Assembly (NCBI GenBank): GCA_964423025.1
Contig: CAYRDH010000007.1
Span: forward strand, 1-24,000
DNA length: 24,000 bases
Reading direction: 5' to 3'
Source: an uncultured Candidatus Saccharibacteria bacterium
GTDB lineage: Bacteria; Patescibacteriota; Dojkabacteria; SC72
Shown: piece by piece, positions 1-13,161 of the stretch
How the letters are laid out: the number at the start of each line of letters is the position of its first letter
Numbering within the stretch: position 1 is the stretch's first letter
Program-made: the position numbers and the translations under genes
The notes under the pieces: generated by a model
Seen by the model: only the letters and a program-made list of their open reading frames with translations
Told to the model about the DNA's origin: nothing
Databases searched by the model: none

Positions 1-57
1 TAGAGCAACTGCCTTTTAAGCAGTAGGTGCTGGGTTCGAGTCCCAGGCGCCTCACCA
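1..57 (+). tRNA. tRNA-Lys (anticodon UUU), 3' portion only; the 5' end lies upstream of the window
   Basis: Anticodon stem 8-12 (ACTGC) pairs with 20-24 (GCAGT). The 7-nt loop CTTTTAA puts TTT at 15-17. T arm is CTGGG/TTCGAGT/CCCAG (30-46). Acceptor 3' strand is GCGCCTC, discriminator A, encoded CCA at 55-57. Confidence 0.85.
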
Positions 58-8436: not shown

Positions 8437-9009
8437 CTACCAAAAAGGCCAATAAATGAGAATTGAAATACTTAAGGGAATAAGGGTTCCGAGGGTTACT
8501 TGGGTTAGGGTGTGTTTGTTAAGTGCTATTCTAGACCAGCCGACGAATGGTGTTAGTACAAAAAGAAACATAAGTGCAGGAGTGGTTGGGAATAGATAGA
8601 TTAGTGTGGCAAACAGTATTGTGGAATATGTCATATGTCCAGATATTTTCCAGTAGAAGGTTATTATGGTGACTATGGTAGAGACGACAAAGAGATTCAT
8701 GGTTACTCTGGTTAAGGTTTCTACATTTAGGGCTAATACAAAGAAGAATATTACACCAAACAATATTGTTATTGTTGTAAAGTAAGGAGGTCTTTCCTTT
8801 CTGTCTGTGAATTCATAGTCTGTCACCTTCCCTAATTTTTTAAGCGTTAAGTAGGGGAGTATGGGGGAGAGTAGGTACAGGAAGAAGAGAATTATTTTTT
8901 GTGTGATTGGTATGGGCGAAGAGAATACGGCAATGGTTGGTGTTAGTATCATGGTCATAAAACCATTGAACATTTCGGATATTATTCTTGCGATTTTCGT
9001 TTTGGCCAT
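8437..9009 (-). CDS. PAP2-superfamily membrane phosphatase (190 aa)
   Basis: Polytopic membrane protein carrying PAP2-like motifs KERPP, SGH (KISGHM) and SRxxxxxH (SRIALNKH). Confidence 0.6.
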   Translation of the reverse strand: MAKTKIARIISEMFNGFMTMILTPTIAVFSSPIPITQKIILFFLYLLSPILPYLTLKKLGKVTDYEFTDRKERPPYFTTITILFGVIFFFVLALNVETLTRVTMNLFVVSTIVTIITFYWKISGHMTYSTILFATLIYLFPTTPALMFLFVLTPFVGWSRIALNKHTLTQVTLGTLIPLSISILIYWPFW

Positions 9010-9014
9010 CGTTT

Positions 9015-9042
9015 ATTCTAGCGGAAAAGTTTGTGTATGCAA
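9015..9042 (-). promoter_or_regulatory. Putative promoter of the PAP2-gatA-nrnA gene string; would give a leaderless mRNA
   Basis: The minus strand reads TTGCAT (9042-9037), a 16-nt spacer, TAGAAT (9020-9015), 5 nt, then the ATG at 9009. Confidence 0.4.
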
Positions 9043-9057
9043 AGTGTGAGGGTTTTT

Positions 9058-9114
9058 GGTTAGGAGAGGGATATGTTTTGTGTGTTTTAAGCACTGGTAT
9101 ATTCTCTCCTAACC
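9058..9114 (-). repeat. Long hairpin, third member of the GTTAG/CTAAC hairpin family; no ribozyme attached
   Basis: GGTTAGGAGAG..ATAT (9058-9074) pairs with ATAT.CTCTCCTAACC (9099-9114), about 16 bp with one bulge. It has the same base sequence (GTTAG/CTAAC) and the same purine-rich/pyrimidine-rich arm layout as the hairpins at 9711-9774 and 10168-10226. It lies 60 nt after the stop of the 9174..9545 gene. Confidence 0.7.
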
Positions 9115-9173
9115 CTTTTTCTCTTGGGCAATGTATTAAAACGTTATTTGCCAAAAGAATGGATGCAAAGTTG

Positions 9174-9545
9174 CTATTTAAGTGAATCTCGGAGATTTTC
9201 CAACTTGGTCTCGACTTCTTCGAAGTAAACTTCCTCGCAGGAATCACTTGCGATGGAATCTCGAAGTTTGGTTATTCTTTTTAGGCATTGGACATTCTCA
9301 ATGATTCTCTGGATTTCTGAACGATGCGATCCCTGAACAACATAGAAATCGTTTTGGAAGGTATCCAAGAAATTGAGAATAACCCAGACATAGCCAGCGA
9401 TAACTGCAGCTATTCCGAAGAAGAGCATGCCAATGTCATCTAGCTGTATCGTGTAGATCAGAAACCATGTACAACCGGCTGTGATGATGAGCCTTATCAG
9501 TGTATTAGCTGTAAAGGTTAGTACAAACTTTTTCCAAATGGACAT
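9174..9545 (-). CDS. Small two-TM membrane protein with a C-terminal coiled-coil-like tail (123 aa), gene C of the array
   Basis: ORF track. Strong SD context CCAAGGAGGTTAAAAATG. Two hydrophobic helices, then a charged helical tail. Confidence 0.75.
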   Translation of the reverse strand: MSIWKKFVLTFTANTLIRLIITAGCTWFLIYTIQLDDIGMLFFGIAAVIAGYVWVILNFLDTFQNDFYVVQGSHRSEIQRIIENVQCLKRITKLRDSIASDSCEEVYFEEVETKLENLRDSLK

Positions 9546-9603
9546 TTTTAACCTCCTTGGTTAAGTGTTGGAATAGGGACTTTGCATTTTAAAGAACATA
9601 TAT

Positions 9604-9612
9604 ATTATACCA
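9604..9612 (-). promoter_or_regulatory. Extended -10 element TGGTATAAT upstream of gene C
   Basis: The minus strand reads TGGTATAAT. A homologous TGATATAAT occupies the equivalent position in the other repeat unit (10062-10070). No convincing -35. Confidence 0.4.
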
Positions 9613-9656
9613 AAATACAGGCCTATAGCATATATCTTCTTTGATAAGCAGGACGG

Positions 9657-9710
9657 AGTAAGTTTCGCTTCATTTCAGAAGCTCATCAGATTTGTAACAA
9701 ATGACTTACT
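9657..9710 (-). ncRNA. Hammerhead self-cleaving ribozyme, type III topology (copy 1)
   Basis: The minus strand reads AGUAAGUC-AUUUG-UUA-CAAAU-CUGAUGA-GCUUC-UGAAAU-GAAGC-GAA-ACUUACU. The parts are: stem III 5' strand plus GUC cleavage triplet (C17 is the complement of 9703); stem I of 5 bp closed by a triloop; core C3-A9 as CUGAUGA; stem II of 5 bp starting G10.1-C11.1 with a hexaloop; core G12 A13 A14; the A15.1-U16.1 pair; and a 7-bp stem III. Every invariant core position is present. Confidence 0.88.
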
Positions 9711-9774
9711 AGTTAGAGGAGGAATATATTGTTGAGATGTACATTTACATGTACCAATATATCCTCCTCTAACT
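9711..9774 (-). repeat. Long hairpin immediately 5' of hammerhead copy 1 on the coding strand
   Basis: AGTTAGAGGAGGAATATATTG (9711-9731) pairs with CAATATATCCTCCTCTAACT (9755-9774), 20 bp with one bulged A. The apical part adds GTACAT/ATGTAC (9739-9744 with 9749-9754). There is no linker before ribozyme stem III (9710). The hairpin starts 8 nt after the stop of the 61-aa gene. The T-run (9774-9778) is on the + strand side only. Confidence 0.8.
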
Positions 9775-9782
9775 TTTTAGGT

Positions 9783-9968
9783 TTATCTGCCCCAGATTCT
9801 TTTGTATGCATCGAAAAAAATAAATGAGACACCAATTATGACAATAATTGTTATTATGACATAGCTTGGTCCCAAACTAACTGCGTAGTGCATGCTATTC
9901 ACCATAGAATATATGGCGACCATTACAAGGAGTGTAACGGGTATGGAAAGGAGAATTTTTCTCTTCAT
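9783..9968 (-). CDS. Very small two-TM membrane protein (61 aa), gene B of the array
   Basis: ORF track. Strong SD context CCCAGGAGGTAAAAATG. Two hydrophobic helices and a basic C terminus (KRIWGR). Confidence 0.7.
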   Translation of the reverse strand: MKRKILLSIPVTLLVMVAIYSMVNSMHYAVSLGPSYVIITIIVIIGVSFIFFDAYKRIWGR

Positions 9969-10061
9969 TTTTACCTCCTGGGTAGAATGAGTTTTAATGA
10001 GCAGATATTATTTATCCTTAAATAGAAAAAGATCATATTAATAGGATATTAACCTATATAC

Positions 10062-10070
10062 ATTATATCA
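10062..10070 (-). promoter_or_regulatory. Extended -10 element TGATATAAT upstream of gene B
   Basis: The minus strand reads TGATATAAT. It lies in a stretch (10052-10091) that aligns at roughly 70% identity with 9596-9633, which carries the other -10 element. Confidence 0.4.
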
Positions 10071-10113
10071 AAATATCAACCTATAGTATAGCAATGCTGA
10101 TTCCTGTCTTTGG

Positions 10114-10167
10114 GGTAAGTTTCGCTTCATTTCAGAAGCTCATCAGATTTGTAACAAATGACTTACT
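10114..10167 (-). ncRNA. Hammerhead self-cleaving ribozyme, type III topology (copy 2)
   Basis: 10115-10173 is 100% identical to 9658-9716 (59 nt). Core and stems match copy 1. C17 is the complement of 10160. The outermost stem III pair is an A-C mismatch, leaving 6 bp. Confidence 0.88.
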
Positions 10168-10226
10168 AGTTAGGGGAGAGATTGTTTTTGTTATTGTACC
10201 TATATGTACCAATTTCTCCCCTAACT
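10168..10226 (-). repeat. Long hairpin immediately 5' of hammerhead copy 2 on the coding strand
   Basis: AGTTAGGGGAGAGATTG (10168-10184) pairs with CAATTTCTCCCCTAACT (10210-10226), 17 bp including one G-U. The base AGTTAG/CTAACT is identical to copy 1, and the inner stem differs by compensatory changes. Apical GTAC/GTAC pairing is possible. A T-rich run (TTTTCTTCT) follows on the + strand side only. Confidence 0.8.
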
Positions 10227-10299: not shown

Positions 10300-10749
10300 T
10301 TATTTTTGCTCAATGAGCTTGTCGATTTTTCTTTCCAACGATTGAAGCTTGTATTTGAGGTCATCCTCTGACATCTTTCGTTCAAGCATAGAGACTTTAA
10401 ACTCTGACTTTGACAGGATGTCGTTAACGTAATTGGATGACTGTCGGAAGCGAATCTGCCAGAGGTCTCTTTGTATATGACGAAAGTCGTCATCATGTCT
10501 ACGAGCGAAGGTTATCCAATAAGTGTACCAAGCAATAAAGATGTATCCAGCGACTGCGAAAGCAATGCGGATAGCTGACTGCTTTTCTATTCCTGAAAGT
10601 AAAAGCTCAGAGAATTGGTACAACATGAGTATAGCCCAAGCAACGTAGAGTAGTCCTAGAAACACCTCGGAAAGGGTTTCAAACAGTATTGTGTGTTCCG
10701 AGACAAAGTTTTTAATCTTGTCCCAAAGATTTTTAAAGAAGTTTTTCAT
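10300..10749 (-). CDS. Small two-TM membrane protein with a C-terminal coiled-coil-like tail (149 aa from the ATG at 10749), gene A of the array
   Basis: ORF 10300..10809, trimmed to the ATG preceded by CACGGAGGTGTAATAATG. Begins MKNFFKNLW. Two hydrophobic helices, then a charged heptad-like tail. Weak resemblance to gene C (an AGY motif in TM2, then xTF..DF..Q). Confidence 0.75.
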   Translation of the reverse strand: MKNFFKNLWDKIKNFVSEHTILFETLSEVFLGLLYVAWAILMLYQFSELLLSGIEKQSAIRIAFAVAGYIFIAWYTYWITFARRHDDDFRHIQRDLWQIRFRQSSNYVNDILSKSEFKVSMLERKMSEDDLKYKLQSLERKIDKLIEQK

Positions 10750-10870
10750 TATTACACCTCCGTGAAGTGTTGTGGTGAGTTGATAAGCCAAGGCCAAAGA
10801 ACCATGCATTTTTTAAAGATCGTTTTCCTTGTTAAACAAGGTTTAAACAGGGTTATTATATAATAATTAG

Positions 10871-13110: not shown

Positions 13111-13140
13111 AAAGAAAAAGACAGGGTTAACCCCCTGTCT
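13111..13140 (-). terminator. Intrinsic terminator after the giant surface protein gene (minus strand)
   Basis: The minus strand reads AGACAGGG-GGUUAA-CCCUGUCU (8 bp, GC-rich) followed by UUUUCUUU. It starts about 20 nt after the stop at 13162. Confidence 0.7.
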
Positions 13141-13161
13141 TCTCTTGGCAGTTTTTAGATA

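Follow-up and report, generated by a model that had tools for sequence, protein, structure and literature searches.

A covarying hairpin at a fixed distance from predicted hammerhead ribozymes behind small membrane-protein genes of Dojkabacteria

In a stretch of 24,000 nucleotides (nt) from an uncultured bacterium of the Dojkabacteria lineage (positions 1 to 24,000 of contig CAYRDH010000007.1, labelled C7 in our set, and hereafter called the window), small membrane-protein genes read from the minus strand are followed by long hairpins with a conserved GUUAG/CUAAC base, and two of these hairpins end directly at the 5' edge of a predicted type III hammerhead ribozyme. The window belongs to a genome of 776,766 base pairs (bp; 37% GC, 91% complete), and the locus lies on a CPR (candidate phyla radiation)/Patescibacteria chromosome, not in a phage. 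The reading that we prefer, and to which we give about even weight, is that hairpin and hammerhead form a module of the sense-strand 3' untranslated region (3' UTR), in which a cut 8 nt past the hairpin would leave the upstream mRNA with a hairpin-capped end carrying a cyclic phosphate, the hairpin in addition insulating the ribozyme or stacking on its weak stem III.

Three hairpins had been pointed out at 9058-9114, 9711-9774 and 10168-10226 in an earlier description made from the letters of the window (hereafter the sequence-only reading), and all three are confirmed, folding as described on either strand with energies of -19 to -32 kcal/mol and z-scores of -4.4 to -8.0, none of 200 shuffles folding as well. 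On the minus strand, hairpin 3 (10168..10226) belongs to the 3' UTR of the gene that opens the array, 69-73 nt past its stop and directly 5' of hammerhead 2; hairpin 2 (9711..9774) starts 8 nt past the stop of a gene of 61 amino acids (aa) and stands directly 5' of hammerhead 1; and hairpin 1 (9058..9114), which has no ribozyme, is found 59 nt past a 123-aa gene and immediately upstream of the promoter of a PAP2-like gene. With a covariance model of the hairpin (R1), they score 68, 63 and 55.9 bits, respectively. They are the only long GTTAG...CTAAC hairpins of the whole genome, and a REP-like (repetitive extragenic palindromic) dispersed element was rejected on the grounds that just three copies exist, all within 1.2 kb. 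Compared with the Rfam 15 covariance models, the hairpin gives only chance-level matches to microRNAs and leaders (E-values of 0.5-4.5, far under the gathering scores).

The two elements adjoining hairpins 2 and 3, at 9657..9710 (hammerhead 1) and 10114..10167 (hammerhead 2) on the minus strand, are by sequence members of the hammerhead type III family (RF00008), and as such predicted ribozymes: they score 59.9 and 57.8 bits for a gathering score of 48.5 bits, cover positions 1-54 of the 54 of the model, and in the RF00008 alignment carry the CUGAUGA...GAAA core and the GUC cleavage triplet, stems I and II being closed by loops and stem III left open. Compensatory changes are seen in stems I, II and III among relatives, and the cut is predicted between 9703 and 9702 in hammerhead 1, and between 10160 and 10159 in hammerhead 2. 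It had been proposed that the last pair of the hairpin is directly contiguous with the first pair of stem III in both ribozyme-linked copies. This holds for hammerhead 1, whose stem III has seven pairs, the outermost (A-U) continuing into hairpin 2, but not for hammerhead 2, in which the outermost pair is A.C, and this position is unpaired in most relatives. What is invariant is therefore not the contiguity of the helices but the distance of 8 nt from the last base of the hairpin to the scissile bond, which is identical in all 17 ribozyme-linked copies, and it is in this form that the physical coupling of hairpin and hammerhead stands. Meanwhile, the length of the hairpin varies from 51 to 76 nt, its distance to the stop codon from 7 to 135 nt, and the distance from the ribozyme to the next start codon from 35 to 321 nt. 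Two further arrangements were considered and rejected: no conserved pairing between the flanks of the module closes a junction, and the hairpin is not stem III of a second, permuted hammerhead (GAAA flank, hairpin, U-H), since no upstream CUGAUGA or stem II is present.

The hairpin stem changes in a way that keeps its pairing. In an alignment of 18 copies with a basal stem of 13 pairs, 94% of the cells are paired and 9 of the 13 pairs change on both sides; none of 500 shuffles reaches the observed pairing or covariation score, pairing falls to 45-58% in controls in which the partner is slid by 1-3 columns, and 12 of the 13 pairs are independently recovered by RNAalifold. The compensatory changes reported at stem positions 7, 8 and 12 among the three copies of the window are present, pairing is largely kept in the additional homologues to which the sequence-only reading had looked for a check, and its proposal that selection bears on structure rather than on sequence is borne out by this pairing and by the two-sided changes. 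Positions 2-6, nearest to the ribozyme, are nearly invariant in sequence, whereas positions 7-13 covary freely.

Four parts can be distinguished in the hairpin: the covarying stem, its conserved base, an inner mini-hairpin, and a 3' linker that is mostly A-rich. The apical region of 23-25 nt of the earlier description does exist, yet it is structured, being made up of the last two of these parts, and the mini-hairpin stem covaries as well (GUAC/GUAC, GUGU/ACAC and GUAG/CUAC types); the linker measures 11-15 nt in most copies, is absent in genome G012, and short in others. The asymmetry of the arms, one purine-rich and the other pyrimidine-rich, is likewise found in the three copies, the purine-rich arm being the 5' one on the minus strand. 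Strings resembling a Shine-Dalgarno (SD) sequence or its complement had also been noticed, and they are present in the window's genus (GGAGG/CCUCC) but confined to it: other genera have AAGAAG- or GATAAG-type arms, so that the purine/pyrimidine asymmetry is conserved while the SD likeness is not.

A search with RF00008 covered 151 related genomes, of which 27 contain hammerheads, nearly all within the window's own family, and these fall into two classes, A and B. Class A ribozymes start with A/U-G/A-UAAGUC and are found in the window's genus g1 (three in tandem in G011, two in G008, and others in G012, G009 and G003), in genera g7 (G072, G090) and g10 (G022), and in metagenome contigs; a long hairpin ends right at the 5' edge of every one of them (n=17). 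To the three hairpins of the window are added 17 further copies, from genera g1, g7 and g10 of one Dojkabacteria family and from metagenome contigs, these three being the only genera matched by R1. Every copy of the module sits behind a co-oriented small membrane-protein open reading frame (ORF), always in the 3' UTR, and the layout on the coding strand is that of a small membrane-protein gene, a spacer of 7-135 nt, the hairpin, the hammerhead and the promoter of the following gene. The constant 8 nt to the cut, this orientation and the separate folding of hairpin and ribozyme speak for the sense strand as the functional one. Since the ribozymes lie upstream of the next promoter, they belong to the 3' part of the upstream transcript.

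Three hairpins without a ribozyme were recovered by the R1 search (9058-9114, one in G011 and one in G013), and all three are directly upstream of the conserved promoter of the PAP2-like gene, at a spot that in G008, G012 and G009 is occupied by hairpin plus ribozyme. In a tree of the PAP2-like protein, G000 (without the ribozyme) is placed next to G009 (with it), and the hairpins of these two are the most alike, the closest relative of hairpin 1 being that of G009. This implies that the 54-nt ribozyme was gained or lost at least twice beside a retained hairpin, although this count is only indicative, as it comes from a single 190-aa protein and a midpoint root. The ribozyme-less copies show that retention of the hairpin has a cause independent of the ribozyme, which fits a 3' barrier or an antisense terminator, and not a purely catalytic helper. 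Several contigs of relatives (G090:C22, G016:C11, G067:C63 and G071:C113) end within about 45-125 nt of a hammerhead, suggesting that repeated modules break assemblies and that copy numbers are probably underestimated. A phage origin was also considered, and this ribozyme subclass has no match in viral contigs.

Class B hammerheads are also preceded by a stable hairpin (z < -2 in 11 of 18), which has no U/T tail on either strand. At class B loci, in other genera of the same family (L007-L028, for example L025:1410-1590 and L027:1410-1575), a conserved CA-rich linker ending in ...CACACGCUA stands ahead of each ribozyme, as does the stable hairpin, and a GAYUCUAGC motif about 75-85 nt upstream is exactly complementary to the junction of linker and stem III, including the cleavage triplet, so that an alternative long-range helix could mask the class B cut site.

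How could hairpin and ribozyme act together? We infer cleavage in vivo, stacking, protection from decay and insulation, as follows. A transcript running past the gene would fold the hairpin first and the ribozyme second; being self-contained, the hairpin would prevent some 60 nt of sticky purine- and pyrimidine-rich sequence from pairing wrongly with the ribozyme, and could stack on the AU-rich stem III of 6-7 bp. The ribozyme would then cut 8 nt 3' of the hairpin, leaving the upstream mRNA with a stable terminal hairpin, a minimal tail of 8 nt and a 2',3'-cyclic phosphate. Such an end should resist PNPase, which a hairpin followed by so short and blocked a tail could plausibly stop, and at the ribozyme-less sites (9058-9114 and its two counterparts in relatives) the hairpin alone may act as a barrier on the 3' side of read-through transcripts. 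Genes for PNPase, RNase J, RNase III and Rho are present, while no RNase R/II (RNB-family exonuclease), Hfq or RtcB turned up in the genome, which is 91% complete; PNPase is the only 3' exonuclease family detected. The suggestion that the hairpin stabilises the 3' end of the upstream mRNA is plausible in the light of this enzyme repertoire and of the constant position of the module.

A folding role of the hairpin receives weak support from modelling. In almost every context, RNAfold predicts two distinct domains, one for the hairpin and one for the ribozyme, and the stem III pairing probability predicted from the partition function averages 0.56 with the native hairpin versus 0.31 with a shuffled one, 10 of the 14 units having the larger value when the hairpin is native. 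A direct contact between the two ends of a transcript, that is, a clamp of the 5' leader on the 3' UTR, does not emerge from duplex energies, which are not better than those of shuffles (z 0 to -0.8). The only exception is a match of 9 nt in two duplicated G011 units (L003:1614-1625, 1885-1945), between the sequence just upstream of the hairpin and the 5' leader of the same gene, a possible 5'-3' contact that is not seen in the units of the window.

A more far-reaching version can be formulated, which we offer tentatively, as possible but somewhat improbable: hairpin and hammerhead would constitute a dedicated, heritable cassette for 3'-end formation in Dojkabacteria (and perhaps other CPR bacteria), standing in for intrinsic terminators after some of the small membrane-protein genes. 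The ribozyme would have the hairpin as its obligatory structural partner, the two making a composite ribozyme subclass, and the hairpin would then become a cyclic-phosphate-ended cap setting the lifetime of the mRNA; on the reverse face, its T tail might in addition block antisense transcripts coming from the next promoter, resulting in a two-way insulator between tandem transcription units.

Several observations weigh against the 3'-UTR module. The copies are related by descent, so that their counts overstate independence; class B hammerheads leave a tail of about 20-30 nt, hence a minimal tail is not a general rule; and the test with shuffled hairpins is partly trivial, because any stable hairpin sequesters its own sequence. 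Nor does the stem itself identify the functional strand, with 7 G.U versus 10 A.C pairs when read in the sense orientation, and folding energies pick no strand either, the sense one being more stable in 9 of 20 copies. The sense 5' flank is A-rich (at least 5 A in 8 nt in 13 of the 20 copies, versus about 8-12% of gene-end hairpins genome-wide), which a pure 3' cap leaves unexplained and which an antisense terminator would explain.

This is the main rival, already advanced in the sequence-only reading, which saw in the hairpins intrinsic terminators of antisense (plus-strand) transcription. They could, for example, stop divergent transcripts arising at the near-symmetrical -10 elements of the next gene before these enter the upstream gene in antisense, and such a function could coexist with a role on the sense strand; taken as the explanation of the hairpins, we consider it unlikely. 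The T-rich tail on the plus strand is real in the window (5-6 T in 8 nt in the three copies), whereas on the coding strand the 8 nt that follow the hairpin contain 0-3 T in each of the 20 copies, hence no terminator tract in sense. Overall, 17 of the 20 plus-strand tails open with TT and 13 have at least 5 T in 8, which is commoner than at the ordinary gene-end hairpins of the genome (10 of 124); but the other seven have only 3-4 T in 8, including the ribozyme-less G011 copy, whose tail is not T-rich, and the hairpins of class B hammerheads have no T tail at all. The wobble pairs slightly favour the plus strand (10 versus 7), the ribozyme-less copies retain the hairpin right upstream of a promoter, and a -10-like hexamer on the plus strand overlaps the sense -10 at about 9603-9608, although conservation of this promoter-like site does not extend to the second repeat unit. 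The shape of the element is not that of a terminator either: the stem base beside the tail (GUUAG/CUAAC) is AU-rich, the apical part, at 25-50 nt or by a narrower estimate 25-38 nt, is far above a terminator loop (3-8 nt), and a consensus terminator scan called none of the three hairpins. At gene ends genome-wide, sense terminators are about five-fold enriched (25 of 124 versus about 5 expected), whereas antisense-oriented ones are not. Finally, an antisense terminator leaves the invariant spacing of 8 nt to the ribozyme cut without explanation.

This same spacing can be turned in favour of a hairpin that would be purely an accessory of catalysis or folding, clamping the AU-rich stem III of 6-7 bp coaxially or making tertiary contacts, without influence on what becomes of the mRNA after cleavage. 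Sequence is conserved in the five base pairs closest to the ribozyme, with free covariation higher up the stem, stem III is weak and in many cases has just 6 bp, stem I is short with a loop of 3 nt, and the occupancy predicted for stem III rises when the hairpin is the native one. Against this, three hairpins persist without a ribozyme, and the lineages concerned are not nearest neighbours of one another, stacking on stem III would make the hairpin point away from stems I and II, and no covariation is seen by inspection between the loops of hairpin and ribozyme; we thus find this reading distinctly unlikely. The hairpin, whose base is conserved with nearly invariant positions 2-6, might alternatively be a protein or nuclease site regulating the small membrane-protein genes, read by RNase III on a stacked helix of about 20-24 bp, or by a factor recognizing GUUAG/CUAAC or the A-rich linker. 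RNase III is indeed encoded, and the linkers are (AAN)n-like with ACAA in many copies; yet the linker is missing or reduced in some copies, as mentioned above, Hfq was not found, and no candidate partner gene is linked to the locus, so we regard such a site as very unlikely.

A last alternative, which we find hardly credible, places the function in DNA, as a cruciform or single-strand recombination site marking cassette borders in an integron-like array. As in attC sites, imperfect palindromes of about 55-75 nt with GTT/AAC-type cores stand behind each gene of a variable array, and the structure is strand-symmetric; among close relatives, anything from 0 to 3 small genes separate the first array gene from the PAP2-like one, with a hairpin behind each. 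The order of the cores is, however, opposite (GTT... at the outer 5' end here, versus RYYYAAC...GTTRRRY in attC), no integrase or recombinase is present among the ORFs scanned in the 24-kb window, the cassettes have promoters, and the element keeps a constant register to a ribozyme, which acts as RNA. The attC/integron identity was accordingly rejected, and because the cassettes have their own promoters and are paralogous, the array is explained by tandem duplication. Taken together, the 3'-UTR module is the reading that we prefer.

Clustered, gene-flanking hammerheads are already known from bacteria. Tandem hammerheads flanking single genes in prophages, cleaving in vitro, and proposed to process transcripts into gene-length RNAs were reported by Perreault et al. 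2011 (PMC3088659). Compared with the clusters presented in the excerpt of that paper, the locus described here similarly has several hammerheads on the same strand between short genes; it differs in that each gene has its own promoter downstream of the preceding ribozyme, and in being chromosomal, in a CPR bacterium and without matches in viral contigs, and a conserved, covarying 5' hairpin at a fixed distance is not described in that excerpt. In the literature that was searched, no paper links hammerheads with CPR, Patescibacteria or Dojkabacteria, and there is no description of a 3' module made of a hairpin and a hammerhead.

By analogy, the nearest functional counterparts would be the 3' hairpins made by RNase III in phage T7 and the stem-loop of histone mRNAs. 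In T7 early mRNAs, RNase III sites between genes leave a 3' stem-loop that slows 3' exonucleases; there too, an intergenic endonucleolytic cut leaves an upstream mRNA ending in a stable stem-loop, but the cut is made by a protein within the helix, while here it would be made by a cis-acting ribozyme a few nt past the hairpin, leaving a cyclic phosphate. Histone mRNAs end in a conserved 3' stem-loop with cleavage a few nt downstream, in eukaryotes and with the help of proteins and a small nuclear ribonucleoprotein, and the resemblance is one of analogy only: a stem-loop and a cut at a fixed short distance, rather than a terminator or a poly(A) tail, would define the 3' end. Intrinsic terminators share a stable hairpin followed by a T-rich tract, which here exists on the plus strand only, and they differ from the present hairpins by the AU-rich base, the apical domain of 25-50 nt, the partly conserved tail and the missing U tract on the coding strand. 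The synthetic insulator RiboJ, finally, joins a hammerhead to a hairpin placed 3' of the ribozyme, which frees the ribosome-binding site of the downstream gene. Both designs fuse a hammerhead to an adjacent hairpin, avoid interference from the flank and define RNA ends, but in the present case the hairpin is 5' of the ribozyme and would stay on the upstream RNA.

The role of hammerhead ribozymes in bacteria is still an open question, and a conserved partner, a fixed geometry and a simple context (after a small gene and before the next promoter) make the idea of mRNA processing concretely testable. The module predicts 3' ends at 9703 and 10160, with a PNPase-resistant, hairpin-capped terminus carrying a cyclic phosphate, and a cleavage or stability that depends on the hairpin and on its spacing. 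It contributes a structured RNA family to a field, the RNA biology of CPR bacteria, of which very little is known, and represents a natural counterpart to synthetic ribozyme-hairpin insulators.

All genes between 3801 and 20622 are carried by the minus strand. The first gene of the array (10300..10809, minus strand; 169 aa, but probably 149 aa from a likely start at 10749 behind an SD) encodes a protein with two transmembrane (TM) segments and a coiled coil, and has orthologues in G008, G011 and G012. It is followed on the same strand by the gene of a 61-aa two-TM protein (9783..9968), which has a strong SD and whose product has no match in Pfam or PHROG. Its extended -10 element (TGnTATAAT, 10062..10070, minus strand, read from the sequence) lies downstream of hammerhead 2, which is why this ribozyme is assigned to the upstream transcript. 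The 123-aa gene (9174..9545, minus strand), preceded by an SD and encoding a 2TM and coiled-coil protein, has its own extended -10 element at 9604..9612 (minus strand, also read from the sequence), downstream of hammerhead 1 and in a homologous copy of the repeated block that carries the element of the 61-aa gene. The PAP2-like gene (8437..9009, minus strand) encodes a membrane protein of 190 aa and serves as syntenic anchor, a gatA-like amidase gene following it; its promoter-like site (TTTGCA, spacer of 17 nt, TAGAAT; 9015..9043, minus strand), is kept in six genomes of the window's genus.

Three features are conserved at 9595-9640 and 10055-10100 on the minus strand, in the stretch from a ribozyme to the following start: a CTATAG-centred palindrome, the extended -10 element and a leader starting with GTTCTTT. 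They recur in G008 and G011, which suggests a shared regulator or promoter architecture of the small-gene array. The two ribozymes, on the same strand, bracket a unit of 457 nt (9703-10160) holding the 61-aa gene; as every unit has a promoter of its own, excision of this stretch would concern read-through RNA only, and RtcB was not found in the genome. In the 45 nt past the modules (9612-9656 and 10069-10113 in the window, and their homologues), 138 C are counted versus 70 G over 14 units, the background being about equal; this C-rich, G-poor stretch is rut-like (resembling a Rho utilization site) in a genome that encodes Rho, and overlaps promoter sequence.

In several relatives, the module follows proteins of 59-67 aa (L006:1099-1287, the 65-aa ORF of L015, L036, L041 and L053) that consist of little beyond an LPATGG-like motif, a hydrophobic helix and a basic tail, and look like a bare sortase-type sorting signal. 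At loci of this type (L034:2580-2645, L006:1311-1376 and L053), another conserved long hairpin, whose inner stem is CTGTCA...TGGACAG, is located just upstream of the module. Elsewhere in the window, a hairpin with a T run on the plus strand (13135-13151) lies between the stop of a 1726-aa gene and the strong promoter of a 635-aa gene; one of its pairs is G.T, which the coding strand would carry as C.A, and it is an antisense-oriented, terminator-like site at a gene junction.

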